Source of the DNA: Candidatus Saccharimonadota bacterium
Lineage (GTDB): Bacteria > Patescibacteriota > Saccharimonadia > Saccharimonadales > UBA4665
Assembly (NCBI GenBank): GCA_016700375.1
Contig: CP065016.1
Location: 1,110,001 to 1,142,000 of the forward strand
DNA: 32,000 bases
Direction: 5' to 3'
The notes beneath the pieces were generated by a model. It ran no database searches. It was given only the letters and a program-made list of their open reading frames with translations, and had not been told where the DNA came from. The position numbers and the translations under genes are program-made. Below, in pieces: positions 3,258-28,940 of this stretch; the stretch's first letter is position 1; every line of letters starts with the position of its first letter.

Positions 3258-3293
3258 GTAACAAACCAGCGCAAACGTATTGTGCCTTGTGCG

Positions 3294-3318
3294 TAATCGT
3301 ATCACTATGATACGATTA
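3294..3318. promoter_or_regulatory. 25-bp palindrome (11-bp arms) covering the first in-frame ATG of the Fic gene
   Basis: taatcgtatca-cta-tgatacgatta. The ATG at 3307..3309 spans the spacer/right-arm junction. Confidence 0.45.
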
Positions 3319-4368
3319 GAGCATATGAATGATACGAATATAACTATACTGCAATTGTTTCGGGGGAGTAAAACGCTTGCTTCCTCAGATGTACACCAGG
3401 AATTATCTGGTGGCGCCTCGCTTGTGACCGTGAAGCGGGCATTGAGTGAGTTGCATGCGCAAGGGTTTCTCGAACGTGAGGGTGCCGGTCGGTCTGTGCG
3501 TTATCGTATTAGTCGGCGCGGCGTATTGTTGCGGCCATATGATACGGCGGTATATTTGCAGGAACCACAGGAAAATAGAATGGCTTCAACGCAGTTTAAC
3601 CATGCATTGTTCCAAGGCAGCTACGAGCCAGTTATGAACGACGTAGCCATGCAGCGGCTCGACGCGGCAACCAAAACGTACCAAGAAAAAGCTCGCCAAA
3701 ATGAAGCGGTACATACGAAGGAGTTGCAACGTTTTATGGTGGAAATGTCGTGGAAGTCGGCTCGGATAGAGGGTAATACGTACACGCTGCTCGATACCGA
3801 AAAGCTGCTAACGTATGGCATCGTCTCGCCAAAAAACACACCGTTTGAGACGCAAATGCTCCTTAACCAAAAAGCAGCGTTTGATTTTGTGTGGGAAACT
3901 CAGGATATGTGGGAGCGGCCGAGTGTTTTATATATAGAAAAACTCCATGAGTCCATAATTGACCAACTTGGAGTGGCTCGAAACTTGCGTTCGACGACCG
4001 TGGGGATAACTGGCACTGACTACGAGCCGCTTGGTAATGGTTTCCAGATACGCGAGGCACTAGAACAGCTTTTGTGCTATATTCAACAGGCGGCAAATGC
4101 GTATGAAAAGGCGCTGCTCTTGACGGTAGGCATGAGCTACATCCAGCCATTTGCCGATGGCAATAAGCGCACGGCGCGTATGACGGCGAATGCACTGCTG
4201 CTTGCCAATGGCCTTGCGCCTATATCATACCGAAGTATTGACGAAACAGCGTATAAAGAAGCGCTGCTTATTTTTTACGAACAAAATAGCGTGGTGCCGT
4301 TCCGGGAACTTTTTGTAGAGCAGTACGAGTACTCGGCGACGCACTATAACATTGCGCGGCCAGCGTAA
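3307..4368 (+). CDS. Fic/DOC-family protein with N-terminal winged-helix domain; catalytic His replaced by Gln
   Basis: wHTH-like LVTVKRALSELHAQGFLEREGAGRSVRYRIS. Inhibitory-helix motif SARIEGN ((S/T)xxxE(G/N)) at 3757..3777. Fic core motif reads QPFADGNKRTAR (4144..4179) rather than HxFx(D/E)GN(G/K)R. Start is uncertain (3280 TTG, 3307 ATG or 3325 ATG). Confidence 0.75.
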   Translation: MIRLEHMNDTNITILQLFRGSKTLASSDVHQELSGGASLVTVKRALSELHAQGFLEREGAGRSVRYRISRRGVLLRPYDTAVYLQEPQENRMASTQFNHALFQGSYEPVMNDVAMQRLDAATKTYQEKARQNEAVHTKELQRFMVEMSWKSARIEGNTYTLLDTEKLLTYGIVSPKNTPFETQMLLNQKAAFDFVWETQDMWERPSVLYIEKLHESIIDQLGVARNLRSTTVGITGTDYEPLGNGFQIREALEQLLCYIQQAANAYEKALLLTVGMSYIQPFADGNKRTARMTANALLLANGLAPISYRSIDETAYKEALLIFYEQNSVVPFRELFVEQYEYSATHYNIARPA

Positions 4369-4380
4369 GAAAGGAAGACG

Positions 4381-6825
4381 ATGAGTGTACTGAAAAGTAT
4401 CGGACCAAAACTGCATGAATTTGTGTGGGACACGCTGGGCGAAGAGCAGGTACACGATTTGGGCGGCGAGTTTTTGCAAACGCCGTACAAGACGAGTAAC
4501 CCGCACTTTGATGATGTAGATGATGTTGTGCATGGCAGCGATTTATTTACGGCCTGGCTTTGGCAAGACTACGTGCATGAGGGCAAAACCATGCTGGAAC
4601 ATTTCCAAGCCTCAGAGCCAGCACTTTCAAAAGAGCAAGCTCTGCAGCTAGACCAAATGATTCGCACGGGCTTCATGAGTGCGTTCAGACTCGGTGAGGT
4701 GCGGCCAGGTAATATTGAGCTGGAAGACTTGCGAAGCGGCACGCGCTACCATGTGCGGGAATATTCTTTGGCTTCACAGGTGCATTCCGGCCAGTTTATC
4801 ATCGCACGGCTGTGCCAGCAGGGTGACCACTGGGAAATCAGTATGCCGGACGGGTCTATGTTCCCGTTCACCATGGGAGATGAAACCATGTTGAAAAATG
4901 CGGTCGAAAAACTGCCGGAGCGCGTTACCATGCAGCACACAACCGGCTATGCTCTGCTACGGCGCGACTTGGGGCTAGATGATTCGTACAAACCAGACCT
5001 GAACAAGCCTAGGCCTCAGCTGCCCAAAAAAGAAGCAGCAGCCGGGCTACAACAGGCAATGGCCGAAACCGGAGTTGATCGGTACATTGCGCCGACTATA
5101 ATTATGCAGCTGCTGGATGAAGAATTTGCCGCTAAAGATATGCCGCCATTTCCTCCTGCCGGTGTGCGCGTGCTTCTCGGTCTGGCTGGCGATAACGAAC
5201 AGCTTGAAAAACTTATGGGAGTGGCAATGGACTACTGGAATGCCCATGTCTCGAAACGAAAGCTGAAAAAGCCCCATGTTCCCGATGTGGTGGTCAATGA
5301 ATTTGACCCCAACGGCTGGGTTGAAAAAGCCAATACGGCGCACGAATTCCTTATTGTACAAGATTCGCCAGCAGCATCTAAGGTGTACGAAGATATGTTT
5401 GCATATATGCTGAAAGAGCGCATGGTCACGCCCAGCCTCTACCGGCTTATTACGAATGCGGCGGTGGCGGAGCTGGGGCAGGGACATTTGCTGTTCGGCG
5501 AGCATTTGCTTGAAACCGCCCAGGCTTTGTGTCCGGACTACGACTTCGCGTGGCACCAGCAAGAGTTACTCGAAAATGGTCATTATGCCTTCGCTGGTCT
5601 AAAAGAACAGGGCGAGGATGGCCCAGAGGGCCTGCTGGAAAAATTGAAGCAGGCGCAAGAACGGCTCGGCCCTTCGCCGGAAATCATCAAAACCTATACA
5701 GATAAAAAGCTACTACAGGCATTTGCTGAGCGCGGAGCTGACACCGACCGAGAGGCGTTCGCGCAATTGGCTAGCCAATATGATGAAGCCTATGATGTTG
5801 CGGAAGAACTAACCAGTAACAACGCGAAAGATGTCGATGCCGTGTATACGTTAGTATGTGAGGTCCAGGAACGGTGGGCGCCAAACGTCGTATGGGTCGA
5901 TACGCTCCATAGGCTTATGGAAGCGTATGACGACAGCATGTTTGATGCAGATGGCCAAGACAGTAAAGACTATGCGGCTATGCTTGACAGCCTGAACCGC
6001 TTTCACCATGCGCTTGACACCGCTTCCGACTCAGTTGTACACAAGTGGATGACAGACTCTAGAGAATATGCCGATCATAGGCAGAATATTGTGTTCGCTT
6101 CGTTGCAAATTGCCCGGGCAAAGCCGAAGCAGCCGGCACTCTCGCACGCTGCTGCGGCGCTCTGCGCGTTGGCTCAAAAACGCACTGGCGATCCCATTTT
6201 TACCGTGCCGAGCCTCTTGGAAAACATGTCAAAAACAGATGAAAAAGCAGTGAAAAAACAGTTTTCAGACCTGGCAAAACTGCTGCCGAACGATTCTGCT
6301 AGCTTCCAAATCCTGGGAGACCAGCTTGAGGTGCAGAAACAGTACACAAGAGCTGTCTTGGCATTTGAGCACGCCATAGCTGCGCTCGACCGGTGCCGCA
6401 GCAAAAAACTCTGGCAAGACCCACCGTACAGTTATGAAACATTGGCAGAAAGCTACGAGTATATCGGCGCATCGCTGTACGACTGCTATACGGCGCTGGG
6501 ACGTATGGGCGACGCAGCAAAACTGACCAAAAAGCTTACCGCCCTTCAGTCCGACACACGACTGGAACACAACAAAACTGCCGATGCGCTCCAAAAAATC
6601 GATGAGAAACTGGTGGCAAAAGAGGCTGGCCAAGACAACCCCATCCTAGACTATATTCGCTGGTTCGAAACGCTCGACATAGATCTTTCCGGCGGCGATG
6701 GGAATGAAACGGTCCTGACAGGGTATAGTGGTGGTGAGAAAATTGGCCGCAACGACCCGTGCCCCTGCGGCAAACTTCGCCCCAACGGCCTACCTATGAA
6801 GTACAAAAACTGCTGCGGAGCGTAA
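4381..6825 (+). CDS. large uncharacterised protein with C-terminal SEC-C metal-binding motif
   Basis: 814 aa. The only recognisable element is the terminal DPCPCGKLRPNGLPMKYKNCCGA (CxC...CC, nt 6760..6816). RBS aaaggaag upstream. Starts 12 nt after the Fic stop. Confidence 0.7.
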   Translation: MSVLKSIGPKLHEFVWDTLGEEQVHDLGGEFLQTPYKTSNPHFDDVDDVVHGSDLFTAWLWQDYVHEGKTMLEHFQASEPALSKEQALQLDQMIRTGFMSAFRLGEVRPGNIELEDLRSGTRYHVREYSLASQVHSGQFIIARLCQQGDHWEISMPDGSMFPFTMGDETMLKNAVEKLPERVTMQHTTGYALLRRDLGLDDSYKPDLNKPRPQLPKKEAAAGLQQAMAETGVDRYIAPTIIMQLLDEEFAAKDMPPFPPAGVRVLLGLAGDNEQLEKLMGVAMDYWNAHVSKRKLKKPHVPDVVVNEFDPNGWVEKANTAHEFLIVQDSPAASKVYEDMFAYMLKERMVTPSLYRLITNAAVAELGQGHLLFGEHLLETAQALCPDYDFAWHQQELLENGHYAFAGLKEQGEDGPEGLLEKLKQAQERLGPSPEIIKTYTDKKLLQAFAERGADTDREAFAQLASQYDEAYDVAEELTSNNAKDVDAVYTLVCEVQERWAPNVVWVDTLHRLMEAYDDSMFDADGQDSKDYAAMLDSLNRFHHALDTASDSVVHKWMTDSREYADHRQNIVFASLQIARAKPKQPALSHAAAALCALAQKRTGDPIFTVPSLLENMSKTDEKAVKKQFSDLAKLLPNDSASFQILGDQLEVQKQYTRAVLAFEHAIAALDRCRSKKLWQDPPYSYETLAESYEYIGASLYDCYTALGRMGDAAKLTKKLTALQSDTRLEHNKTADALQKIDEKLVAKEAGQDNPILDYIRWFETLDIDLSGGDGNETVLTGYSGGEKIGRNDPCPCGKLRPNGLPMKYKNCCGA

Positions 6826-6905
6826 CATGCTAAAAGCAAGAACTCGTGCTATGTTGCAAGGTGAAGCGGACCCAGAAGTTGTTGCCATAAAAAAGGTTTT
6901 GCTAA

Positions 6906-7806
6906 CCCCAATCACGCATTAGCCATCTGGTAACCAAGTAGTACCCGCACATAGTGTGTAAAGTAACCTTTAACACTTCTTGGGAACGAAGTGACCAGGA
7001 AGTGGTGTTCCTTAAGCTTACCGAAGGTAGCTTCTATCTTTGGTCTCATGTGGAGCAAAAGCATTTGCCAGTCTGCGGCTAATTTCTTTCTTTGAGTATG
7101 ATGCGGTGGTGCGATCACTATAGTTTTATGTTTCTTCCAGAGTCGCTTGCGCATGACGCTGCCACCGTAGTGACTATCGCCGACAAGTATCTTCGTGTGG
7201 TCATTCACGAGTTGTTCGATGTGCTGATTGTCGTGTTCATTAGCAGGAGTAAATACAACAGCTGCTAACCTGTTGTTGTAATCTATGGCCGCATGGAGCT
7301 TGAACCCGTAGTGCCACCCTTGCCAGTTCTTGCCAAAGTCGGCTACACCCTTGGCTACTTTGTGTCTGTTAGCACGTATGGGCTTACAGACGGGGAGCAT
7401 TGTGCTGTCGACAAAGCGGAGCGGTGCTCCGCTTGCTAGAAGCGTCTGTAGCAACCAAACCATCTGTGGCAGTAATCGATGCACGTGAGCCACAAAGTTT
7501 TGGTACTTGGGCATATGAGGAAAACAATCCGAGTACTCTCTGCAAGCCCAGCCGTACAAACTCGAAAGGTTTTTGTGGGGTTCGGTGAGGCCATCCCATA
7601 TGAGGATAGTGAGGAGTTCACTGTCTTTAAGGGCCGGATGCTGACCTCGTTTGTTTGGTTGGACGACTATGTCGTCTACCCAAACAAACACATCTACGAT
7701 ATTATTCCTCTGTAAAGCACGCATATTTTCCTCCTGTTTGTTTTGAAAGATTTACAAGAGAAATTGTAGCGTGCTTTATCTATTGGTGGCTAATGCGTGA
7801 TTGGGG
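6906..7806 (-). mobile_element. IS982-family insertion sequence, apparently intact
   Basis: 20-bp perfect terminal inverted repeats: ccccaatcacgcattagcca (6906..6925) and tggctaatgcgtgattgggg (7787..7806). Flanked by the 8-bp direct repeat tttgctaa (6898..6905 and 7807..7814). Single transposase ORF inside. Confidence 0.85.
6912..7724 (-). CDS. IS982-family DDE transposase
   Basis: 270 aa. Pattern FVDSTMLPVC...GWHYGFKLHAAIDYNN...ILVGDSHYGG...IEATFGKLKEHH matches my recollection of IS982 transposases. Confidence 0.85.
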   Translation of the reverse strand: MRALQRNNIVDVFVWVDDIVVQPNKRGQHPALKDSELLTILIWDGLTEPHKNLSSLYGWACREYSDCFPHMPKYQNFVAHVHRLLPQMVWLLQTLLASGAPLRFVDSTMLPVCKPIRANRHKVAKGVADFGKNWQGWHYGFKLHAAIDYNNRLAAVVFTPANEHDNQHIEQLVNDHTKILVGDSHYGGSVMRKRLWKKHKTIVIAPPHHTQRKKLAADWQMLLLHMRPKIEATFGKLKEHHFLVTSFPRSVKGYFTHYVRVLLGYQMANA

Positions 7807-7829
7807 TTTGCTAAACTTGAAAGAATACA

Positions 7830-8720
7830 ATGAAACAAAGATGGCTAGGGCTGTCTAACAATACAAAAGGGGTTACGACGGGGCTTCTGTCGGCGTTTTT
7901 CTTTGCGAGCTACCTTGTGATTAACAGATATATTTACACAGAGTTTACAGTAGATTCCCTCGCATTTGCATTTCTTTTCAATGCTCTCGCTGGTATATTT
8001 GCCGGCCTGTCACTAATGCAAAAATACAATAAAAGAAAAATGAGAAGCATTTGGCAGGACCGTTACAGAATATTACTACTTTGTATCTATGGTCTAGCGG
8101 GTATGTTATTACTTTTGATGGGTCAGCGCTATACCACGTCTATACACGCGTCGTTGCTTGTGACGGGTAGTATTGTTGCCACAATGGTGTTTTCTACTTT
8201 ATTCCTTAAAGAAAGTATAACCACACGTCAAAAATGGTGGGTAGTTGGTATGTTTGTGGGACTTTATGTTGCCATCGTGGGCGTACAAGCCATAAGCTTT
8301 CTTAGGGGCGACCTGATTATCCTAATTGGTATTATATTTTTCGGGCTAGGAAACGTATTATCAAGAAGCTTAATGCAAAGACATGATTCCGCTATCATCC
8401 CAGATTTACGGGTTTTTCTTGTAGCGGTGATTGCGGGCTTGGTGTATGTATTGTTCTTTCATTCAATAAACATCTTCTCATTAGTTGGGCTGTGGACAGT
8501 CGTATCTTCGCTATGTTTCTGGCTGACAATGAGAAGCTTCGCAGCCACTGTTCACTTAGTGAATGCGAACCACGCGATTGTACTTGTAAATGCGCAGATA
8601 GTACCAGCATCACTTGCTGGTGTTTTTCTGCTGAACGAACACTACAGTTTGGAAAAATTTGTTGGTTCGGTGATTGTTCTCGTATGTATTTACTTCATAA
8701 CGTGGAGGGGTAGGGAATAA
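7830..8720 (+). CDS. EamA/DMT-family transporter
   Basis: 296 aa and about 10 hydrophobic helices in two halves. Typical of the drug/metabolite transporter superfamily. Confidence 0.75.
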   Translation: MKQRWLGLSNNTKGVTTGLLSAFFFASYLVINRYIYTEFTVDSLAFAFLFNALAGIFAGLSLMQKYNKRKMRSIWQDRYRILLLCIYGLAGMLLLLMGQRYTTSIHASLLVTGSIVATMVFSTLFLKESITTRQKWWVVGMFVGLYVAIVGVQAISFLRGDLIILIGIIFFGLGNVLSRSLMQRHDSAIIPDLRVFLVAVIAGLVYVLFFHSINIFSLVGLWTVVSSLCFWLTMRSFAATVHLVNANHAIVLVNAQIVPASLAGVFLLNEHYSLEKFVGSVIVLVCIYFITWRGRE

Positions 8721-9283
8721 TGCCGCACATACATACCCAGCCAGGGCAGCACGATATGACGGTGAGCGCGTACATAATCCGGCGCGACGGCGATGACTGG
8801 AAATGCTTGGTACATATGCACCGTAAGGCAGGCAAGCTTATGCAGGTGGGTGGCCACGTCGAACTAGACGAAACACCATGGCAAACACTTATGCATGAAA
8901 TTCGTGACGAAAGTGGCTACCAAGTATCTGAGCTAAGTGTATTACAGGTTCTGCAGCCGCCTCATTTGGAGACTGCTGTGGTGCATCCTGCACCCTTTTC
9001 TTCAAACACGCACAATGTTGGCAACGGCCACTTTCATTCCGACTGGTGTTACGGCTTTGTCGCGGCCGACAGGCCGAGCGGCATCGTCGCGAGCGGAGAA
9101 TCGACAGATGTTCGCTGGTGTACCCTAGCCGAGCTACGCAGTCTTGCGGAGCAAGGCATATGTTTGTACGACGTCATCGATTTATACGAATTTTTGGTAA
9201 GCAACGTAAGCAGCTTTCAGCAATATCCATGCGGGCAGTACTCACTAAAAAAGCCGGCTCATGGCGAAACGGTCATACCATGA
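8720..9283 (+). CDS. NUDIX-family hydrolase with slightly degenerate Nudix box
   Basis: GHVELDETPWQTLMHEIRDESGY, i.e. GX5EX7 then HE-I-x-DE-x-G rather than REUxEExG. TAATG overlap with the EamA stop and ATGA overlap with def. Confidence 0.7.
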   Translation: MPHIHTQPGQHDMTVSAYIIRRDGDDWKCLVHMHRKAGKLMQVGGHVELDETPWQTLMHEIRDESGYQVSELSVLQVLQPPHLETAVVHPAPFSSNTHNVGNGHFHSDWCYGFVAADRPSGIVASGESTDVRWCTLAELRSLAEQGICLYDVIDLYEFLVSNVSSFQQYPCGQYSLKKPAHGETVIP

Positions 9284-9846
9284 AAGGGTTGCGCCTGACA
9301 CGGCTCGGAGACCCGTTGCTCCGGCAAGTTGCGCGTGAACTAACGGTCGCAGAAATCAAATCAGGTGAAATTCAGCAGCTTATAACAGATATGCTCAAGA
9401 CAAATGAGGTAAAAGGCGGTATGGGACTTGCCGCGCCTCAGGTTGGTGTGCCGCTGGCTCTTGCCGTTATAGACATTCGGCCAACGAAACATCGTCCGAA
9501 GGCTGAACCGTACCGGAGCGTCGTAATCAATCCGCGGTTTACTGGTGTAGGACGGAGGGTGCGCACATGGGAGGGATGTCTTAGCGCTGGAAGTGGTAGT
9601 ACCGTTTTATTTGGTCAAACACTGCAGTACAAGCGCATCCAGGCGCAGTGGCTCGATGAAGGCGGAAGGGCACATGACGAAGAACTCTCGGGCTTAGTGG
9701 CGCACGTTTTTCAGCACGAAACCGAACACCTACAAGGTGTTCTATTTGTAGACAGAGTGCAAGATACTAAAACATTTATGGTAGCGAGTGAATACCGCAA
9801 AAGAATTCTAAAAAAGGCTTCTTTAGGTCAAGACAATACCGTATAA
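9280..9846 (+). CDS. def: peptide deformylase
   Basis: ORF 9046..9846 trimmed to ATG 9280 (MKGLRLTRLGDPLLRQ). All three PDF motifs are present: GMGLAAPQVG, EGCLS, QHETEHLQG. Confidence 0.85.
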   Translation: MKGLRLTRLGDPLLRQVARELTVAEIKSGEIQQLITDMLKTNEVKGGMGLAAPQVGVPLALAVIDIRPTKHRPKAEPYRSVVINPRFTGVGRRVRTWEGCLSAGSGSTVLFGQTLQYKRIQAQWLDEGGRAHDEELSGLVAHVFQHETEHLQGVLFVDRVQDTKTFMVASEYRKRILKKASLGQDNTV

Positions 9847-9877
9847 TCGCCAGAAATAGTAATGGCAAAGGAGTAGC

Positions 9878-10927
9878 ATGCGGTCAAAATCAAAAAAACT
9901 GTGGATTGTAGCAGGAGTTCTCTTGGTCATGACAGGAGGGACGCTATGGTTATTTGGCGGGAATTCTCCACAAGATCGCTTGAGCCAAGAAGACTGCACC
10001 AGTTATGAGCAATATGATGAAAAAGGTGGCTCTTGCTATTACGACTGTGAAACAGATGAAGAATGCGCGACGATTGAGCAGAAGATAAATGCCGAACTTG
10101 ATAGCTATTTTGAAGGCTCTCAAGCAAAAGTGGCTCCGACAAAACCTAAGCCTCAGCCTGCTGTCGAGCAACCCCAAAATACAAACGACCAGCCCACAAA
10201 ACAGTACACCCTCGAGGAAACCGGCTCGGACACGCGGGGCAAAGTATATACGGTCACTACATCGCAGGAGCTTTCGCCGCAACCACGTAGCCGTGATGCT
10301 GAACTATGGCAGTTATTCACCCGGGTAGCGAGCAAGCAAACCATTAGCGAAAGGTTGCTGACGTTTGAGGTGTTCTCTGATGCAAATAACGACAGCGCAG
10401 CTTCTGTGTGGCAGAGTCAAGATAACCCGGCCAAATGGCACATGAATGTCAATGCCGCCTTTATGGATGACCGCAAAGACCTTATACATACCATGGTGCA
10501 CGAGTTTGGTCACATTGTCACCCTTAACACGACTCAGGTAGAACGAGTGAGCGGGAGCTGTCCTAGGTTGGAAATACCCGAAGGTTGCACAAAAGCGGGG
10601 TCATACTTAGCAAATTTTGAGTCTCGTTTCTGGGCCAAATATGGCTCCAGCGTCCCAGGTAATTACGGTGACGACCAAGACGAAGTTACGACATTTTACC
10701 AAGGCAAAGAAGATGCTTTCGTTACCGAATATGCCGCCACAAACCCCATTGAAGACTTGGCGGAAACGTGGGCGTACTTTGTACTACGTGCGAAACCAGC
10801 TGACACAAGCGAAAAAAGCCAGAAAATACTCTCACTCTACGACTACCCCGAACTGGTTCAGCTGCGTGACCGCATACGGGCAAATGTAGGCAACGAACTG
10901 ACGCAGCGCAATTTGCTAAAGCGTTAG
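9878..10927 (+). CDS. membrane-anchored/secreted protein with HExxH motif (putative zinc metallopeptidase)
   Basis: N-terminal anchor KKLWIVAGVLLVMTGGTLWLF. Low-complexity P/Q/T linker. MVHEFGHIV (HExxH) with a downstream EDLAETWAYF. RBS aaggag. Confidence 0.6.
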   Translation: MRSKSKKLWIVAGVLLVMTGGTLWLFGGNSPQDRLSQEDCTSYEQYDEKGGSCYYDCETDEECATIEQKINAELDSYFEGSQAKVAPTKPKPQPAVEQPQNTNDQPTKQYTLEETGSDTRGKVYTVTTSQELSPQPRSRDAELWQLFTRVASKQTISERLLTFEVFSDANNDSAASVWQSQDNPAKWHMNVNAAFMDDRKDLIHTMVHEFGHIVTLNTTQVERVSGSCPRLEIPEGCTKAGSYLANFESRFWAKYGSSVPGNYGDDQDEVTTFYQGKEDAFVTEYAATNPIEDLAETWAYFVLRAKPADTSEKSQKILSLYDYPELVQLRDRIRANVGNELTQRNLLKR

Positions 10928-12916: not shown

Positions 12917-13168
12917 GTGACCCAGTCTGTTTTTGTAGAAATACCAGGGGTTGGCCCATCGCTGGCTCGCGACCTAGAGTCGTTGGGTTATACGGCGATT
13001 GATGGTCTCCGAGGTGAAAACCCCGAGCAAATGTATGAACGCTTGCAAGCCAACGCCGGTGTGCATATAGACCGCTGTGTGCTTTACACTTTCCGTTGTG
13101 CCGTGTATTACGCTTCCGGCGGCCGTGATGCAGAGAAACTAAAATGGTGGAACTGGAAAGACCAGTGA
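12917..13168 (+). CDS. helix-hairpin-helix domain protein (Cdd1 'pathogenicity locus'-like family)
   Basis: 83 aa with a GTG start. EIPGVGPSLARDLESLGY (HhH) and the ...CVLYTFRCAVYYAS pattern. Confidence 0.6.
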   Translation: MTQSVFVEIPGVGPSLARDLESLGYTAIDGLRGENPEQMYERLQANAGVHIDRCVLYTFRCAVYYASGGRDAEKLKWWNWKDQ

Positions 13169-13354
13169 AGGTTATAGGTGGTAAGGGCGTAGAGGTAATC
13201 CGCCCAGCCTCCAAAAAGAAATAACCTGCTATTTCTCTCGCCTCAAATTCTCCGCCGCCATTACCCGCAGCGCCAAAAATGTCTTTTTGCCCTCTCCGGA
13301 AAATTTGTCCATTAGCCGGGTAGGGTTGTTAAGTAAAAAACATGACCATAGGGT

Positions 13355-13360
13355 TATAAT
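13355..13360 (+). promoter_or_regulatory. candidate -10 box (TATAAT) 8 nt upstream of the rloC-like ATG
   Basis: tataat at 13355..13360, spacer aaggtgaa, ATG at 13369. Confidence 0.4.
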
Positions 13361-13368
13361 AAGGTGAA

Positions 13369-15531
13369 ATGAGAACAGATAGGGTAAGTAAGGTCGTTAA
13401 GTATACTCTTAAGTCCTATGTTAAATATACTGGGCCAGATGACCTTTTTGATCGTGCCAACATATTCTTTGCGCAAAACGGTCAGGGTAAGAGTGCATTA
13501 GCGCTGGGAATTCGTGATGAATATCTTAAGTCTAATTCTGAAGATGGTTTAAGAATATATAACAATGACTATGTCGAGGCAAAATTACGAGCTAGTGAAG
13601 GTTCGGGTAACATTCGTGGAGTTAAATTGAACTTTGGGGATAACGCCAGCATAGAAGAGCAACTCTCGATGCTTGAAAAGGAACGAGCAGAGATATTGAG
13701 CGAGGCTGAGGCGCTTGAGAATGAGAATAAAACCCTTATAAAAACTACCGAGGATACTATTCACGATATTTTCACCCGACGTAAAGGAAAATCAAAGATA
13801 AAAACAAAATCCCATAAAGATGGAGTGCACGAAAAAGTTGTTGGTCTTTGGGTAGATGAATATATTGAAGCGCTAAAGCTTTTCCCGAAAGAGGATTACG
13901 GAATCATTTCAGGCGAGGATAATCTCAGTAAAAACCTAGATGCAATCACTAACGTTAATTTACCATCCATTGTCTTGCCAACAGATGAAGATTACCGAGA
14001 AATCGGAAGGATTCTCAATAAAACGTATGATACATCTACTATCCCAGTTCCAGAGGTTGTGAAATGGCTTGAAATAGGGGTTGGACTTCATCATGGCAAG
14101 CAGGCATGCGAGTTTTGCCTAAGCAAAGTTGATATTATCGAAATTGAAGACAGAGTAGCAAAGTACACACAGAATGCACAAAGTATTGATAGCAAGAAAA
14201 TTGAGGATATTATTAGTAGCATCGCCAGCATTGCGACAAAGGTGAGAGGCCTTGTTACCAGCAAACTGGGCATACTAATTGCATTTGACAATCATACTGA
14301 TGCAGAGTTGTTCTTTAATGACTTAGAGATCCAGCTTGAATATACTGAAAAGTATACGACGGCCTTATCAGAAAAACTCAATAACATGGCTGGTCAAAAA
14401 GAAGATATCTCCGGCGACCTAAAAAATACCCTAAAATTAATTGATAGCAATATAGATGACCTCAGGCGCGTCAAGGCCGAGCTCAAGACCGGTTACGAGA
14501 AGCGTATCAATCGGCTTGAGGTGCTCGTTAAGGGTGGTATCGGCTATGAGATAAAAAACAACGAAGTCATAAATAATAATATTACAACATATAACAACAA
14601 CCTAAAAAAGCTTTCTTACCTTAGAAAAGACTATCGTAAAAGGATGACCGTAATCAATGACCTGAAAGACAGCAAATCTGATCTCTCCGATTTCGCTAAG
14701 TATCTAAACGAGATTTTAGCCGATATCAATATAGGATTTAAACTTCGACTTGATACTACCGATAAATCCTATTTCATCGAAAACATTGCAACTGAGGAAA
14801 AACTACACATCAAAGACATTAGTGAGGGGGAACGTAATTTTCTTGCACTCATCTACTTCTACTACGAGATGTTGGGCGATGATGGAAAAACATTAAGAGA
14901 TGGCATTAATGTTGTTATTATTGATGACCCTATTTCAAGCCTTGATGATGAGAATAGGTTTTACATACTTGAGCTTGTCAAAAAAGTGATTGACGATAAG
15001 AGCTTTCAGTCATTCGTGTTCACCCATGCATGGCACGACTTCTATGACCTTTGTTATGGTAAGAATGAAGACCAGCATATTAGGAAGTATGAGATTCGTA
15101 AAGTAAACGGTAAAAGTATCGTGTATGCAGCTAAGAGCATCATAAATCCGTATAGAAAATTATTCAAAAAAGTTTTTGATTTCTCAGAGAAGAGCTTTGG
15201 GGACCTAGATTTGGATGAAATACTTCATACGCCAAATACCATGAGGCGTGTCCTTGAGGAGTACATGCGTTTTAATCACGGTATTGAATTTGCAACTCAA
15301 GCAAACTACAACAAGATAGCCCGGGCGCTAATGCGTCAAGAGGTTGCAAAAATAAGTACTAAAAATGAAACTAAAATTAGAACTCTGTTAACTGTTTGTA
15401 ATGTCTTGTCGCATGGTACCCCACGTGCTAAATCTGCAAGCGACATACACAATAGTGCCAAATTTCTTATGGGTAGATTTAAGGATATTGATAAGTATCA
15501 TTATGATGAAATGAGGCAATTGGATGAATAG
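13369..15531 (+). CDS. AAA_13-family ABC-type ATPase, RloC/PrrC-like (putative anticodon nuclease) with coiled-coil CxxC zinc hook
   Basis: 720 aa. Walker A AQNGQGKS (aa 35-42). About 440 aa of helical insert with CEFC at aa 247-250 (nt 14107..14118). ABC signature ISEGERNFLAL, Walker B VVIIDDPISSLDD, H-loop FTHAW. C-terminal domain has NTMRRVLEEYMRF ... NVLSHGTPR (an R/E/H arrangement as in PrrC-type nucleases). AT-rich compared with its neighbours. Confidence 0.75.
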   Translation: MRTDRVSKVVKYTLKSYVKYTGPDDLFDRANIFFAQNGQGKSALALGIRDEYLKSNSEDGLRIYNNDYVEAKLRASEGSGNIRGVKLNFGDNASIEEQLSMLEKERAEILSEAEALENENKTLIKTTEDTIHDIFTRRKGKSKIKTKSHKDGVHEKVVGLWVDEYIEALKLFPKEDYGIISGEDNLSKNLDAITNVNLPSIVLPTDEDYREIGRILNKTYDTSTIPVPEVVKWLEIGVGLHHGKQACEFCLSKVDIIEIEDRVAKYTQNAQSIDSKKIEDIISSIASIATKVRGLVTSKLGILIAFDNHTDAELFFNDLEIQLEYTEKYTTALSEKLNNMAGQKEDISGDLKNTLKLIDSNIDDLRRVKAELKTGYEKRINRLEVLVKGGIGYEIKNNEVINNNITTYNNNLKKLSYLRKDYRKRMTVINDLKDSKSDLSDFAKYLNEILADINIGFKLRLDTTDKSYFIENIATEEKLHIKDISEGERNFLALIYFYYEMLGDDGKTLRDGINVVIIDDPISSLDDENRFYILELVKKVIDDKSFQSFVFTHAWHDFYDLCYGKNEDQHIRKYEIRKVNGKSIVYAAKSIINPYRKLFKKVFDFSEKSFGDLDLDEILHTPNTMRRVLEEYMRFNHGIEFATQANYNKIARALMRQEVAKISTKNETKIRTLLTVCNVLSHGTPRAKSASDIHNSAKFLMGRFKDIDKYHYDEMRQLDE

Positions 15532-16795
15532 CATTAACTGTCCGAAATGTGGAAGTTCAATAGACATTGATGAAGTGCTAAGTGGGCAGATTGAGGCACG
15601 GGTGATTGCGTCGGAGCATCAGAAGCATCTGGCTGAGATTGAGAAGTTGAAGTCCGAAGACGAGCAGAGGCGTGTCGAGGAGCGTAAGGCGTTTGAGGCT
15701 ACAGCGAACGAAAAAATTAAGGCACAGCAGGAACTGTTAGAGGAAAAGTCGCGCCAATCACTTGAACTTGAGCGTGAAAAAATGAAAGTGCAGCTGGAAG
15801 GCGAAGCTAAGAAGAAAGCGCAAGAGCAAGAATTACTTATTGAGCAGCTCCGTGAAGATGCGAAATCTGATAAAGAATCAGCAATGGAATTACGTGAACT
15901 TGTGAAAGAGTTACGCGAGGATTTACGTGGTGAGAAGAAAGCCCGTGAGAACGCCGAGCTGGAGGCTCAGAAGAAACTCAGCGAGTCAGAGGATAAAATT
16001 CGTCAAGATGCTTTGAAGACTTCCGATGAATCACATCGTCTGAAAATGCTTGAGATGGAAAAGAAGCTTACCGATACACAAGCGGCTTTAGAGGCTGCTC
16101 AACGCAAAGCGAGTCAAGGTTCACAACAAAATCAAGGTGAAGTGCTAGAGCTGGATCTCGAACAGCGTCTACGCGAAGAATTCCCATTTGATGACATTAC
16201 AGAGGTGAAAAAGGGGCAACGCGGTGCTGACGTACGACAAACAGTAAAAAATAAATCGTTTAAACCCTGTGGTGCTATATTGTACGAAACAAAGAATGGC
16301 AAGTGGCAACCTGCATGGGTTGCGAAGTTCAAAGTTGATATTCGAGAGGCTGGCGCAAATGTAGGTATCATCGTTAGTCAAGAATTACCGCAAGAATATG
16401 GCGATATGTGCCAGCTTGATGGTGTTTGGGTGTGCAAACCAGTTCTTGCACCTGTGCTTGCTGCTGCGCTTCGTAACGCAATACTGCAAGTTGATATCGC
16501 TAATCACAATAACGAGAACAAGGATGAAAAATTAGAGGGTTTGTATCAGTTTTTGGTTGGTCCAGAGTTTCGGCATCGTGTAGAAGCCATCGTTGAGAAC
16601 TACGGACTTATGCAGGCAGAAATTGAAAAAGAAAAACGTACAGCAGCATTGCGCTGGAGTCGACAAGAAAAGTCAATCCGTGCTGTAATAGATAACACAT
16701 TAGGTATGTATGGTGACCTGCAGGGGATAACGGGCGGAGCACTTACGAGTATTAAAGCTATAGAAGCCGAAGTAGGCGAAGATGTCGAGGACTGA
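15524..16795 (+). CDS. DUF2130-like protein: CxxC knuckle, long coiled coil, C-terminal PD-(D/E)xK-type motif
   Basis: 423 aa. INCPKCGS at the N-terminus. About 190 aa of E/K/Q/R-rich heptad sequence. Then FPFDDITEVKKGQRGAD(236)V...AILYE(255)TK(257)NGK. The start overlaps the upstream stop by 8 nt (ATGAATAG). Confidence 0.7.
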   Translation: MNSINCPKCGSSIDIDEVLSGQIEARVIASEHQKHLAEIEKLKSEDEQRRVEERKAFEATANEKIKAQQELLEEKSRQSLELEREKMKVQLEGEAKKKAQEQELLIEQLREDAKSDKESAMELRELVKELREDLRGEKKARENAELEAQKKLSESEDKIRQDALKTSDESHRLKMLEMEKKLTDTQAALEAAQRKASQGSQQNQGEVLELDLEQRLREEFPFDDITEVKKGQRGADVRQTVKNKSFKPCGAILYETKNGKWQPAWVAKFKVDIREAGANVGIIVSQELPQEYGDMCQLDGVWVCKPVLAPVLAAALRNAILQVDIANHNNENKDEKLEGLYQFLVGPEFRHRVEAIVENYGLMQAEIEKEKRTAALRWSRQEKSIRAVIDNTLGMYGDLQGITGGALTSIKAIEAEVGEDVED

Positions 16796-16882
16796 TTAGC
16801 TTGAGATTTATTTGAGGCGCGGCTTGATATCTTTTTTGCTTCGGAGTCGTTGAGTTTTGCGAAGAGTCAGGCAGTTCGGTTT

Positions 16883-23583: not shown

Positions 23584-23592
23584 GGAGTGCAT

Positions 23593-24174
23593 ATGACTGC
23601 ACGGACGCATGATGTTGCTGCTCTTACTGCACTTACGTTGTGGATTCTGGCCGTGCCGCCCGGCAAGACTACAGTAGCCACAGCGCTGACGGCGGTGCTT
23701 GCAAACCAGCTTGGTGGGATTGCGCCAGACATAGACCAGCCCACGGCGCCACTGTGGCGCAATATACCGGTTGGGCGGTACTTTGGAAAGATTTTTGGGG
23801 CACTGGTGGGTGGGCATCGTTTCTTTTGCCACTCTATTTTGGGTGTTGCAGCATTTGGGGCGCTTAGTTTGCTACTACTCCAATTTTTGCAGCCAATTAT
23901 GCCGAACGTAGATATACATTTCGTCTGGGGCGCCTTTCTGACCGGTGTTGTGTCTCACCTCATTATGGATAGTTTCACCAAAGAAGGAGTGCCATGGCTG
24001 CTGCCCATTCCATTCAAATTTGGGTTTCCGCCGCTGCGTCGCCTGCGCGTGACTACCGGCAAAGGCATGGAAAACTTTGTTGTACTGCCGCTGCTCATTG
24101 CCATTACTACTTGGCTCTGCGCCAGCAATTACACGGCACTGGCCGAAATCATTCAGCGCAACCTCGTGAAGTAG
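23593..24174 (+). CDS. membrane-bound metal-dependent hydrolase, YdjM/DUF457 family
   Basis: MTARTHDVAAL...GGIAPDIDQPT...HRFFCHSILG...SHLIMDSFTKEGVPWLLP are the His/Asp motifs of DUF457. The ORF track starts at GTG 23587. Confidence 0.7.
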   Translation: MTARTHDVAALTALTLWILAVPPGKTTVATALTAVLANQLGGIAPDIDQPTAPLWRNIPVGRYFGKIFGALVGGHRFFCHSILGVAAFGALSLLLLQFLQPIMPNVDIHFVWGAFLTGVVSHLIMDSFTKEGVPWLLPIPFKFGFPPLRRLRVTTGKGMENFVVLPLLIAITTWLCASNYTALAEIIQRNLVK

Positions 24175-24271: not shown

Positions 24272-24886
24272 ATGGCGGTAAAAGCTTCAATTACTCCTGA
24301 AGTGGGTGGAAACGTGCTTGTATTCCCAGAACGGGGCCAACGTCATGTAGTAGATGAACTTTCCTGGCTCCTTACAGGTATTGAAACTGCAGGTGTTACT
24401 TATGCAGGGCGAGAATCTCAAAAAGCTCTACTTTGTAAGGTATTCGGTATTGTGTTGGGAGCTACCGTACAGGATATTTCTCTCACGCGTACGCGCGCCC
24501 ATAGACTGGAACGCATAGAAAAAAAGATCAATATGCGAATTGCAGATTCTGATTCTTCAGGCAGACCCGTGTACAGAAATCAGATTAGGACCGTAACCGA
24601 AAATGTTCCGATAACGAGAGATACAACTCCGGCATGGCAGACACCCGTTGAAGTAGTAGCGAAAGTAAATGGCAAATATCTGCCGGTAGATTTGGCAGAC
24701 CATGACGCGGTGTTATCAGGACAAGAATTCACCAGTACTCTTAGAGATTTAATTCGTTATGCTGTTGATAATACTGAGCTCGTTTATGCCGCAGAAGCAG
24801 TCATGCCAACCATGGAAGAATTTATTGCTAAACCTGCCCCTAGGATTGGCGTTGTTGCACTCGCCTTAACTGGCACCGAAGGCTAA
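24272..24886 (+). CDS. hypothetical protein
   Basis: 204-aa ORF with RBS aagagga 7 nt upstream. No family or motif recognised. Confidence 0.5.
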   Translation: MAVKASITPEVGGNVLVFPERGQRHVVDELSWLLTGIETAGVTYAGRESQKALLCKVFGIVLGATVQDISLTRTRAHRLERIEKKINMRIADSDSSGRPVYRNQIRTVTENVPITRDTTPAWQTPVEVVAKVNGKYLPVDLADHDAVLSGQEFTSTLRDLIRYAVDNTELVYAAEAVMPTMEEFIAKPAPRIGVVALALTGTEG

Positions 24887-24969: not shown

Positions 24970-25611
24970 ATGGCAAATTTTTCCGAAATGTCTCGAAATT
25001 CAATTCCAGGTTCGGCGGTTAGACCGCAAGAAATTGATTTTGCTGCAGAAGTAGACTCATTTATTGCCAGTCTAGAAGAGCAATTGAAACCCGCAGGCCC
25101 TATACGTCAGCGTCAGGATAATGCAATCGAACATTTGAGGCGTTTTGGACTAGCGCCGAGGGAACAGATTGATACCGTTAGGGCAGATTTGGAGCGGGCG
25201 CTCGGTTTTGAGTGCCGAATACTTCGAGTTATTCGGGCGGTAATAGCTTCTGCTGATGGCGGTGAGCGCACCGTGACACGGCTGATTGCAGGCGGATACC
25301 AGCAAATAAGTGACGAAGTGGTCGACCCCACGGTACGGGTTATAGATAACTGGGATGGACACCAAAACAATCTGAGCGACGAAACAAGGACTCGGCTGTG
25401 GCAGCTGTGTGCCAATACAGAAAACCCCGTTTACATTGCCGCTGGTGCGCAGGATAGGTTTGAAGGTGACATCCATGAGGCACTTGTTGCTGTTGGACGA
25501 GACCAGGGCATACCGGTGCGCGATGCTTACCGCCTTGGTGGCCCTGCGGTAAGCGGTGTTCGTGAGCCACAGAGCTTTGTTGAATGGTCGCAGTACTCGC
25601 TTACTGCTTGA
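24970..25611 (+). CDS. hypothetical protein
   Basis: 213-aa ORF with its own upstream tacaat/tataat boxes (24897..24936). Helical N-half. No family recognised. Confidence 0.5.
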   Translation: MANFSEMSRNSIPGSAVRPQEIDFAAEVDSFIASLEEQLKPAGPIRQRQDNAIEHLRRFGLAPREQIDTVRADLERALGFECRILRVIRAVIASADGGERTVTRLIAGGYQQISDEVVDPTVRVIDNWDGHQNNLSDETRTRLWQLCANTENPVYIAAGAQDRFEGDIHEALVAVGRDQGIPVRDAYRLGGPAVSGVREPQSFVEWSQYSLTA

Positions 25612-27433: not shown

Positions 27434-28475
27434 GTACTAAGCCCCAATTGTCCAGACACTTAGACATGAGTTACTGTTCCTTTCCATACCGCTTCATAGT
27501 GCTCCATTGGCGGCAGGTTATTGCAGCTGCTATGCCGTCTCACGCGATTGTATTCGTTCTGCCATAGTTTCATTGCTTCGTTGAACGCGACGACATCAAG
27601 CTCGGTCGTTTTGGTGACGTGGTAAAACTCTTCTTCGTCTGTCCGATGGCTCCGCTCGACAAAACCATTATGTTGGGGTGTACCCGGTCGGGATAGCTTG
27701 TGCTCGATGCCCCGGTCGAGCAGGTACTGCGTGAACGGGTGGATACGTCTGAGCTCATGGTCACGCTTTTTGTTACCGCCAGTAGACAAATTGGTGAACG
27801 TGGAGTGGTTATCTGTCTGGACACATTCCACCGTAATACCAATCGATTCGTAGAACGCCAGGGCTTCACGCACAAAGGCGATTGAGTTGCTATTCGACAA
27901 GCCATCCTTGACCGCCAGGTACCGGATCTTGCTGACAATGTCTATCGCTGTAAACTGCTGTCTCCGACTCCGTCGTTTATCTTCGTCCGGACGAACCGGT
28001 GCAGCCTTAGTGTCAATCTGCACTCGGTAGCCTGGATAGGGCGCGTAGAACGGTCTCGTTGGCTTTTTCTTTGGATGTTTCTGGTGCTTTACGAGGTCGG
28101 CTCGTTCAATAATGCCGCGGACAGCTTTCTCGCCAATGGATATTCCAGAGTCACTCATCTCATCGACGATTCGCTTCGGGCCATAGGATAGTCCCAGCCT
28201 GATTTGTAGCACCAAATCCTCAATGTCTTCATTCGTCTGCCAGGATACCCTGCCTTTTGGTCCAGGCTTCTGCGGGAACAGTTCGATCCGCCAAGCATAG
28301 ATAGTATCCCGATGGATCCCAAACATTCGGGCAGCGATTGCCGCGCCTTTCGCATCGGCTTCAGTTAACACTCGTTTACGATAGGCAATAACTTGATGTC
28401 GGGTTAGGTTCTTCTTCATACACATATGCCCCAATTCTACACACCGAGGTGTCGGAGGGATTGGGGCTTAGTATA
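27434..28475 (-). mobile_element. IS481-family insertion sequence, apparently intact
   Basis: Terminal inverted repeats (g)tactaagccccaat (27434..27448) and attggggcttagta(t) (28460..28474). Flanked by the 16-bp direct repeat gtaatgtagtaattgt (27418..27433 and 28476..28491). Confidence 0.8.
27460..28434 (-). CDS. IS481-family transposase (HTH + rve integrase core)
   Basis: N-terminal HTH (AARMFGIHRDTIYAWR). DDE core YRVQIDTK..., VQTDNHSTF, RPGTPQHNGFVERSHRTDEEEF. The start may be ATG 28419. Confidence 0.9.
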   Translation of the reverse strand: MGHMCMKKNLTRHQVIAYRKRVLTEADAKGAAIAARMFGIHRDTIYAWRIELFPQKPGPKGRVSWQTNEDIEDLVLQIRLGLSYGPKRIVDEMSDSGISIGEKAVRGIIERADLVKHQKHPKKKPTRPFYAPYPGYRVQIDTKAAPVRPDEDKRRSRRQQFTAIDIVSKIRYLAVKDGLSNSNSIAFVREALAFYESIGITVECVQTDNHSTFTNLSTGGNKKRDHELRRIHPFTQYLLDRGIEHKLSRPGTPQHNGFVERSHRTDEEEFYHVTKTTELDVVAFNEAMKLWQNEYNRVRRHSSCNNLPPMEHYEAVWKGTVTHV

Positions 28476-28863: not shown

Positions 28864-28940
28864 TGGTACCCCGCACAGGAATCGAACCTGCAACCTCCGG
28901 TACCGGAAACCGACGCTCTATCCAATTGAGCTAACGGGGC
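28864..28940 (-). tRNA. tRNA-Arg (anticodon CCG), CCA encoded
   Basis: The reverse complement folds as a cloverleaf: GCCCCGT-TA-GCTC-AATTGGATA-GAGC-G-TCGGT-TTCCGGT-ACCGG-AGGTT-GCAGG-TTCGATT-CCTGT-GCGGGGT-A-CCA. Acceptor has G1.U72 and U7.G66 wobbles. Confidence 0.9.

Follow-up and report, generated by a model that had tools for sequence, protein, structure and literature searches.

An overlapping RloC-DUF2130 gene pair in a Saccharimonadota genome as a candidate acquired defence islet

We describe here a pair of overlapping genes from a Candidatus Saccharimonadota bacterium, located in a 32,000-nt stretch of contig CP065016.1 (positions 1,110,001 to 1,142,000). This whole stretch is called the window in the following, coordinates refer to it, and labels of the type L086 denote comparison loci drawn from other genomes, plasmids and contigs. 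Judged from its sequence, the upstream gene (gene 1) adds a new member to the known RloC family, and the downstream gene (gene 2) encodes a predicted DUF2130 coiled-coil PD-(D/E)xK nuclease that presumably acts on DNA. With a probability of roughly 0.55, we take the two-gene block to be a small acquired defence islet, in which a self-contained RloC tRNase is joined by a co-expressed DUF2130 nuclease of a kind that accompanies many systems. The pairing of the two families across genomes is real but facultative. Because DUF2130 recurs beside many different defence systems, the partnership is probably a loose and optional one, and a new dedicated two-part system is disfavoured. The RloC gene itself is ordinary; what appears to have gone undescribed so far is the recurrent operon-like RloC-DUF2130 arrangement, as well as the wider association of DUF2130 with defence.

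The two genes, their junction and their composition

A sequence-only reading of this DNA, which preceded the present analysis, had pointed out the open reading frames (ORFs), their motifs, an 8-nt overlap and a low GC content, and all of these were found where it had placed them. The features of the block are the following.

13300..13368, plus strand: AT-rich leader of gene 1, start of the low-GC block
13369..15531, plus strand: gene 1, 720 aa, with a split ABC ATPase head, a coiled-coil insert carrying a CxxC hook, and a predicted C-terminal HEPN-type anticodon-nuclease domain
13471..13494, plus strand: Walker A motif (P-loop) AQNGQGKS, residues 35-42; N37, G38, G40 and K41 invariant
14107..14118, plus strand: CEFC zinc-hook motif (C247, C250) between the helical arms; both Cys invariant
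14818..15033, plus strand: C-terminal half of the ABC head, with signature ISEGERNFLAL, Walker B motif VVIIDDPISSLDD and H-loop FTHAW
15136..15528, plus strand: C-terminal anticodon-nuclease-like domain, R626-x3-E630-x51-S681-H682
15524..15531, plus strand: 8-nt overlap ATGAATAG between the end of gene 1 and the beginning of gene 2
15524..16795, plus strand: gene 2, 423 aa, DUF2130 (Pfam PF09903, E = 1.2e-55)
15539..15550, plus strand: CPKC knuckle (C6, C9) at the N-terminus of gene 2, part of a beta-hairpin of residues 3-14 in the structure model
15566..16117, plus strand: long E/K-rich helix (residues 15-198); AlphaFold2 (AF2) predicted local distance difference test (pLDDT) score of about 80-91 up to residue 150
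16130..16435, plus strand: predicted PD-(D/E)xK-type core (residues 203-304) in the order alpha-beta-beta-beta-alpha-beta, carrying D236, E255 and K257

For gene 1, an RloC-type zinc-hook ABC ATPase had been proposed, and this assignment is borne out by the Arg-Glu-His triad and by a match to Pfam AAA_13 (E = 1.7e-51). The RloC family was defined by Davidov and Kaufmann (2008, PMC2610378) as proteins of 658-897 aa in which the ABC motifs resemble those of PrrC, a helical insert has CX2C at its centre, and the C-terminus carries the motif R-X3-E-X36-52-H, in which a Ser often precedes the His. Gene 1 shows all of these traits, since it has a length of 720 aa, the ABC motifs, a CX2C-bearing helical insert and the C-terminal motif with an x51 spacing. 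In an alignment of 16 family members, on which all statements about residue conservation in gene 1 are based, S485, G487 and E488 of the signature, D519 and D520 of the Walker B motif and H553 of the H-loop are invariant. The same is true of R626, E630 and H682, the putative catalytic residues of the C-terminal domain, and of S681. Furthermore, six PADLOC models for PDC-S06 match gene 1 over their full length (best E = 7.3e-34, residues 28-715), and the PADLOC model for PrrC covers just its ABC part. One gene 1 homologue is named 'wobble nucleotide-excising tRNase' by NCBI; NCBIfam gave no match to either gene. In the AF2 model of gene 1 (pLDDT 79.9), helices 92-241 and 256-453 lie around a CxxC hairpin at residues 246-252, the helical insert measuring about 360 aa. 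A Foldseek search with this model had Rad50, SMC and SbcC as top matches (best E = 2e-6), the best PDB structures being Rad50, an SMC head with coiled coil, SbcC, RecN, JetC and LmuB, and a sequence-profile search of the PDB found Rad50 heads only (residues 444-562, E = 3.7e-5).

The characterised RloC proteins are reportedly those of Geobacillus kaustophilus and Acinetobacter baylyi (Davidov and Kaufmann 2008; Klaiman et al. 2012, 2014), and the biochemical mark of RloC is a zinc-responsive tRNase that cuts out the wobble nucleotide. Gene 1 resembles RloC in its size class, in an ABC head that is interrupted by a coiled coil bearing a CX2C hook, and in the C-terminal R-x3-E...S-H, and the gene 1 family shares with RloC a frequent linkage to restriction-modification (R-M) genes. 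However, gene 1 is only distantly related to RloC in sequence, the two having been compared by motifs and without a direct alignment to a characterised RloC, and the overlapping DUF2130 gene is an arrangement that has not been described for RloC; furthermore, no R-M genes were found in the window. Another relative is PrrC of EcoprrI, linked to Type Ic R-M, in which an ABC ATPase is likewise fused to a C-terminal Arg-Glu-His anticodon-nuclease domain and, following the same logic, the RNase is kept latent by the NTPase domain. PrrC proteins, however, have 341-416 aa, lack the coiled-coil/hook insert and are invariably located inside a Type Ic hsd locus (PMC2610378), whereas gene 1 has 720 aa and an insert of about 360 aa, with no R-M genes among the scanned ORFs.

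Gene 1 is probably self-sufficient, because characterised RloC works alone (PMC2610378) and PADLOC treats the family as a one-gene system. PDC-S06, which in the literature examined is a computational candidate only, is defined as one gene and says nothing on DUF2130. With respect to the earlier suggestion that the pair is not a named system, profile searches give a divided answer: gene 1 by itself belongs to the described RloC family and to the single-gene PDC-S06, but the pair falls into no named system. Gene 2 has no PADLOC match, and the literature searched holds no link of DUF2130 or COG4487 to defence. Searches of the literature for rlo gene names, TrlF and COG4487 returned nothing relevant, a paper on the lactococcal plasmidome does not mention DUF2130, and a survey of HEPN proteins gives R-M, RhuM and Fic/Doc as the only neighbours of RloC/PrrC.

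The assignment of gene 2 as a DUF2130 coiled-coil protein with a PD-(D/E)xK motif also stands. Its match to PF09903 reaches 189 bits, as compared to a gathering cut-off of 26.7, and covers residues 173-409. In the AF2 model (pLDDT 77.7), the knuckle hairpin is followed by the long helix, which presumably forms a coiled coil, by the predicted core and by a C-terminal helical region. D236, E255 and K257 do not vary among 15 clade A sequences, E255 being at least 90% conserved over both DUF2130 subtypes, and the knuckle residues C6 and C9 are invariant in both (30 sequences), even though the second subtype is only about 20% identical. A first hidden Markov model for DUF2130, built from close relatives, missed this divergent subtype in L001, and a broader profile was built afterwards. 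Foldseek gave no match to the gene 2 model at E <= 0.001; its weak matches (best E = 5.7e-3, probability 0.99) are nearly all PD-(D/E)xK nucleases, among them the SPARDA nuclease subunit, MspJI, BstEII, Cap4, Bax1, BamHI, Ecl18kI and AgeI. DUF2130 has been listed as a PD-(D/E)XK family of unknown function in a superfamily survey that also covers RmuC (PMC3424549). RmuC shares with DUF2130 a long N-terminal helical region followed by a C-terminal PD-(D/E)xK domain, but the two are different Pfam families, the comparison being one of design, and DUF2130 has an N-terminal CxxC knuckle. The family is large: gene 2 has more than 1200 homologues at 60-75% identity, 4048 cluster representatives remain at 50% identity, the mean column identity within clade A is 72%, and DUF2130 is spread over phyla at about 60% identity. 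A phage collection had no DUF2130 match, and IMG/VR yielded just 4 DUF2130 and 3 RloC loci. Fusions of DUF2130 to an ATPase were not found, the long forms carrying DUF2130 alone. One record labels a DUF2130 homologue as Mycoplasma MG148-like.

At the junction of the two genes, the ATG of gene 2 is preceded, at a distance of 8 nt, by a GAGG that is part of the last codons of gene 1. The nucleotide homology to rloC genes elsewhere stops at 15515, and that to DUF2130 genes elsewhere begins at 15519. Two comparison loci show a similarly tight junction. In L086, an rloC gene whose product is 36% identical to gene 1 stops at 7073 and DUF2130-B starts at 7074, leaving a gap of 0 nt, and in L085, the order is hsdR, rloC, DUF2130-B, with 2 nt between the latter two. 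The RloC proteins of L085 and L086 are 62.5% identical and the genes upstream of them differ, but a single 2.3-kb alignment spans the junction, and the final rloC codons, AGAGGAGAT, supply the ribosome-binding site of DUF2130. A 2-kb metagenome contig (L184) has the identical gene junction, with gene 2 being 100% identical; considered as an independent context, it turned out to be the same genome arrangement.

The low GC content noted earlier is borne out, with the refinement that it is not confined to gene 1. Near position ~13300, the GC content in 100-nt steps falls from 0.53 to 0.36. Overall GC is 0.381 in gene 1 and 0.453 in gene 2, as compared to 0.498 +- 0.032 in 26 further ORFs that were examined. 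The GC content of third codon positions (GC3) is 0.383 in gene 1 and 0.403 in gene 2, as compared to 0.524 +- 0.062 in the rest of the window, such that both genes lie about 2 standard deviations under the remainder. An AT-rich, compositionally foreign block therefore spans both genes (~13300-16880). The GC3 of DUF2130 usually follows that of its host, with a mean z of 0.18 in 52 loci, whereas the copy in the window is atypical (z = -1.66). Since GC3 is atypical in both genes and that of DUF2130 normally tracks the host, the block was probably acquired horizontally. We had considered, from overall GC, that gene 2 was resident and gene 1 inserted, but dropped this idea because GC3 is atypical in both.

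If the block is an acquired defence islet, the region at ~13300-16880 would consist of two co-transcribed but separable modules. Going by its homology to characterised RloC, gene 1 would dimerise via a zinc hook formed by C247/C250, and DNA would be monitored by its Rad50-like ABC head. Upon DNA breaks or failed restriction, ATP-driven switching would free the C-terminal HEPN-type RNase (R626/E630/H682), which would then cleave tRNA anticodon loops, leading to a stop of translation and to abortive infection. The translation of gene 2 would be coupled to that of gene 1 through the 8-nt overlap. The DUF2130 nuclease, presumably acting on DNA, would be either a general accessory to defence systems or an independent defence-island nuclease.

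Pairing of RloC and DUF2130 and the wider company of DUF2130

We have assessed the pairing from both sides, using 53 dereplicated RloC-family clusters on the one hand and 61 DUF2130 loci from reference genomes on the other (84 dereplicated loci in the positional test below). A DUF2130 neighbour is present in 4/53 RloC clusters and absent from 49/53. The dominant neighbours of RloC are R-M genes, which are found in about 18 of the 53 clusters and belong to Type I, II or III systems; 10 clusters have an N6/N4 methylase, 5 have a Type III Res, and others have HsdR/M/S or Type IIG. None of the 61 reference-genome DUF2130 loci carries a gene 1 orthologue, and DUF2130 lacks an RloC partner in at least 80% of its loci. 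The nearest relatives of gene 1 are a 75% homologue that is followed by a Type III methylase and a 64% homologue that is followed by a peptidase; a 48% homologue is located in a mobile element next to copper-resistance genes. Relatives of gene 2 at 75%, 71% and 68% identity sit amid housekeeping genes. The closest relatives (75% identity) of each gene are thus without the other. Among 96 plasmid records with an AAA_13 gene of the type found on the Lactococcus plasmid pC42, 4 also carry DUF2130. The two genes do not co-occur in most of the genomes that have either one, as an obligate two-gene system would. Nevertheless, their adjacency is above chance and operon-like. That the two families would lie side by side in other genomes as well is confirmed by juxtapositions that arose in at least four separate RloC lineages, in both gene orders and mostly with abutting, co-oriented genes, and a uniform null predicts about 0.2 DUF2130 adjacencies in 52 RloC clusters, as compared to 3 observed.

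DUF2130 keeps similar company with other systems. In the 84 dereplicated DUF2130 loci, 15 defence-type ABC ATPases occupy positions +-1-2 (305 slots) as compared to 2 at positions +-3-8 (569 slots), which corresponds to an odds ratio of 14.7 (Fisher p = 7e-6), and 16/17 of these ATPases are encoded on the strand of DUF2130. Representative loci are the following.

L033 4194-7236; L168 (Enterobacter asburiae, NZ_CP083835.1) 4118-7410; L179 4007-7407: OLD nuclease with DUF2130
L171 (Aliarcobacter butzleri plasmid, NZ_CP104379.1) 4989-10195: DUF2130, 1-nt gap, complete Gabija, DNA methyltransferase
L031 1279-4664; L016 3424-7296 (two Saccharimonadia genomes): PDC-S46 ATPase directly upstream of clade A DUF2130
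L165 (pNP40, NC_010901.1) 6001-9871; L166 (pCV56A); L175 (Bradyrhizobium ottawaense): TrlF-like ATPase beside DUF2130
L167 (Ralstonia solanacearum, CP085044.1) 3939-10371: NERD-UvrD helicase, DUF2130, DUF4297 (PADLOC 2e-161), DUF87/HerA
L172 (Sulfurimonas paralvinellae, NZ_CP041407.1) 4989-7920: DUF2130, 1 nt, gamma-glutamylcyclotransferase-family gene, 24 nt, reverse-transcriptase-like gene

The commonest immediate upstream neighbours of DUF2130 are OLD-family nucleases (AAA_15 plus TOPRIM). They adjoin it in L033, L047, L020, L158 and L163, on the Enterobacter plasmid (L168) and on the IMG/VR contig L179, with gaps of 2-11 nt or an overlap in three independent cases, and an OLD class with a DUF2130 partner is not described in the literature examined. 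OLD nucleases and Gabija, which are ABC-ATPase nucleases of defence islands, directly adjoin DUF2130 more often than other genes do; the window contains neither. The Gabija genes of L171 score 2e-190 for GajA and 3e-270 for GajB, the latter overlapping GajA, and this locus may represent either a Gabija variant with three genes or a densely packed island; since Gabija is defined as GajA plus GajB, DUF2130 would be at most an add-on to it. The PDC-S46 ATPases of L031 and L016 match their PADLOC models over the full length (3e-264 and 1e-201), and the genes of L031 overlap by 1 nt.

On plasmid pNP40 of Lactococcus lactis, DUF2130 is followed after 47 nt by an 846-aa 'TrlF family AAA-like ATPase' with a partial match to PADLOC Ppl; the literature searched contains no defence phenotype for this pair. 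In the related Lactococcus plasmid pC42, the slot of the TrlF-like ATPase is held by a full-length PDC-S06 AAA_13 gene (5.5e-245), which is followed by Type II R-M. The Lactococcus DUF2130 genes are about 97% identical, yet they are paired with these unrelated ATPases. DUF2130 adjoins Type I R-M in Chryseobacterium, and the Sulfurimonas locus may be a DRT-type arrangement. The Ralstonia gene upstream of DUF2130, annotated as 'AAA family ATPase', was considered as a further ABC ATPase but is the NERD-UvrD helicase.

In general, plasmids and conjugative elements often carry DUF2130 next to defence genes. The Saccharimonadia themselves carry DUF2130-B (L158-L164, L001) in regions that resemble type IV secretion systems (T4SS) and integrative and conjugative elements, with TrbL, TrbC, VirB4-like, TraG-like, RadC and serine recombinase genes. 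These DUF2130-B copies are 93-96% identical, but their flanks and cargo are entirely different, suggesting that this episymbiotic lineage harbours a conjugative element whose slot for defence cargo is variable.

Competing explanations for the pair

The sequence-only reading had gone further and proposed a coupled two-component system that follows the Rad50/Mre11 logic, and this part of it did not hold up. Such a dedicated complex, in which the DUF2130 nuclease replaces Mre11/SbcD at the RloC hook ATPase, perhaps joined to it by the CxxC motifs or the coiled coils, would sense or cut foreign or broken DNA and then trigger tRNA cleavage. As with Rad50-Mre11 and SbcC-SbcD, a hook-bearing coiled-coil ABC ATPase is indeed encoded beside a nuclease. 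However, gene 2 matches only DUF2130 and PD-(D/E)xK proteins, not the calcineurin-type phosphoesterases, the ATPase of gene 1 has an RNase effector of its own, and co-occurrence is optional, not obligate, as seen from the partner's absence in 49/53 RloC clusters and from the unpaired closest relatives of both genes. Characterised RloC is active by itself, fusion proteins were not found, and co-variation is lacking, given the nearly identical Lactococcus copies beside unrelated ATPases. Furthermore, DUF2130 abuts Gabija, DUF4297-HerA, OLD and Type I R-M as well, and since several of these neighbours are established in their own right, they argue against a dedicated complex in the style of Rad50/Mre11. 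We therefore regard a dedicated complex as unlikely, though it keeps some weight because the genes overlap in the window by 8 nt and abut in L086 and L085 (0 and 2 nt), because the L085/L086 unit is conserved across 62% RloC identity with one alignment through the junction, because the low GC3 is common to both genes, and because both proteins have an invariant lone CxxC beside long helices; the recurrent juxtaposition in both gene orders speaks for it, too. An associated nuclease in analogy to Mre11/SbcD had also been brought up for RloC, and judged improbable, by Davidov and Kaufmann, who thought that RloC is possibly tethered to DNA by an associated R-M enzyme (PMC2610378). A related idea, which we hold to be doubtful, is that DUF2130, with its hook-like CxxC, long coiled coil and PD-(D/E)xK domain, is an unrecognised widespread defence nuclease without an ATPase of its own that would dock onto the SMC/ABC ATPases of its neighbours (RloC/PDC-S06, PDC-S46, OLD/GajA, TrlF-like), which would thereby gain a DNA-cleaving or DNA-end-sensing arm. 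The operon in the window would then be one case of 'ABC ATPase + DUF2130', with a heterotypic zinc-hook/coiled-coil pairing between C247/C250 of RloC and C6/C9 of DUF2130.

At the other extreme, the two genes could be chance neighbours, with DUF2130 being a resident RmuC-like repair or recombination nuclease, rloC having landed upstream of it, and the overlap reflecting genome compactness only. The very strong conservation of DUF2130 (72% in clade A) among mostly housekeeping flanks, its host-like GC3 in the 52 loci and the Mycoplasma MG148-like label would fit this explanation, and short distances (2-34 nt) to an unrelated upstream gene are frequently seen in these genomes. We nevertheless consider it improbable, as the DUF2130 copy in the window is itself compositionally atypical, adjacency exceeds the uniform null, position and strand are strongly biased, and DUF2130 is frequent on plasmids and conjugative elements next to defence genes. 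A further explanation is that DUF2130 belongs to the backbone of conjugative elements or plasmids (for DNA processing, establishment or anti-defence) and borders a cargo hotspot, such that RloC, OLD, R-M and the like are interchangeable cargo without a functional tie to it. This would account for the position of DUF2130-B in Saccharimonadia between T4SS genes (TrbL, TrbC, VirB4, TraG) and RadC/recombinase with varying slot cargo, for the Mesorhizobium DUF2130 among relaxase, ParA, WGR, DUF736 and ArdC genes, for the variable slot between DUF2130 and a serine recombinase on the Lactococcus plasmids, and for the spread over phyla at ~60% identity. However, T4SS and plasmid genes are absent from the window, many of the DUF2130 loci clearly belong to chromosomes, and hotspot cargo is not expected to abut DUF2130 and to be co-oriented with it in 16/17 cases, so that we rate this explanation as very improbable.

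Several observations also weigh against the acquired defence islet that we prefer. The positional statistic is inflated by ascertainment, since the query ATPases were taken from adjacent cases and 4 loci were found via RloC. Most clade A DUF2130 genes of Saccharimonadia lie amid housekeeping genes and have a host-like composition, which fits a non-defence role, too. The abutment in L085 and L086, kept despite the divergence of RloC, is the appearance expected of a true two-gene unit. With respect to the RNase, a check of gene 1 and its relatives for the HEPN motif Rx4-6H showed that H682 and N678 are conserved but that the canonical arginine, 5 residues before the catalytic His, is replaced by a nearly invariant Cys (C677), which also sets gene 1 apart from RloC. 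Finally, the target of the RNase, its trigger and the cleavage activity of DUF2130 are all drawn from homology.

RloC is among the few defence proteins that are thought to link the sensing of DNA damage to a shutdown of translation, and a recurrent, co-expressed DNA nuclease partner would offer a concrete hypothesis on how RloC is tethered to DNA or triggered. If DUF2130 modulates or supplements the systems next to it, the present single-gene and two-gene definitions of several of them would be incomplete; otherwise, its presence still serves to flag defence hotspots, in Patescibacteria as well as on plasmids. The neighbours of this large conserved family include genes of pNP40, a classic phage-resistance plasmid of Lactococcus.

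Surroundings of the block in the window

The gene pair lies in ordinary chromosomal surroundings, with genes for a peptide-deformylase-like protein, NUDIX, nitroreductase, Cdd1, an Rce1-like protease, UvrC, a Mur ligase and DHFR. Going by the names that its closest homologues bear, the window belongs to Saccharimonadia / Patescibacteria. As the sequence-only reading had stated, the pair has no R-M gene, integrase or tRNA next to it, and the scan of window ORFs found no R-M genes in the 32 kb at all. The window has two tRNA-Arg genes (at 28864 and 31635), and its sole mobile elements are insertion sequence (IS) genes far from the pair.

6912-7724, minus strand: DDE transposase (DDE_Tnp_1_3), an IS-type gene, among the nearest mobile genes
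27460-28434, minus strand: rve-family integrase, IS-type, about 430 nt from tRNA-Arg(CCG) at 28864-28940

No synteny was found between the flanks of the pair and those of other DUF2130 loci. Flanking repeats were considered as insertion scars, but just an 18-nt direct repeat of 83% identity and a 16-nt inverted repeat of 81% were found and judged to be chance. The imperfect 18-nt direct repeat (12977-12994 / 16844-16861) brackets the gene pair, with one copy within the Cdd1-like gene; it is probably chance, though it could be an insertion scar. A Shine-Dalgarno-like AAGGTG is present ahead of gene 1 at 13361-13366, and no convincing sigma-70 promoter was found there. The scan for promoters and terminators was uninformative, with the same counts as in shuffled sequence, and there is no terminator between the two genes.

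About 7 kb upstream of the pair, in the region 3280-6825, a protein with a winged helix-turn-helix and a Fic/DOC domain matches PADLOC SoFic (4e-14) and PDC-S04 (1e-14), and its gene is followed after 13 nt by an 814-aa ORF without a Pfam or PADLOC match; together they may be a second defence-type locus. On the other side, the ORFs at 24272-24886 and 24970-25611 have no Pfam or PADLOC matches, and the former, whose GC3 of 0.33 is lower than any other in the window, may represent a further foreign insert. A YdjM-family membrane protein is encoded at 23587-24174, 7 kb downstream of DUF2130. YdjM homologues (54-63%) are also found near DUF2130 in five Saccharimonadia loci, 0.1-2.5 kb downstream of it in four of them (L013, L023, L025, L027) and about 4.7 kb downstream in L037, and this recurrence may be a trace of ancestral synteny.

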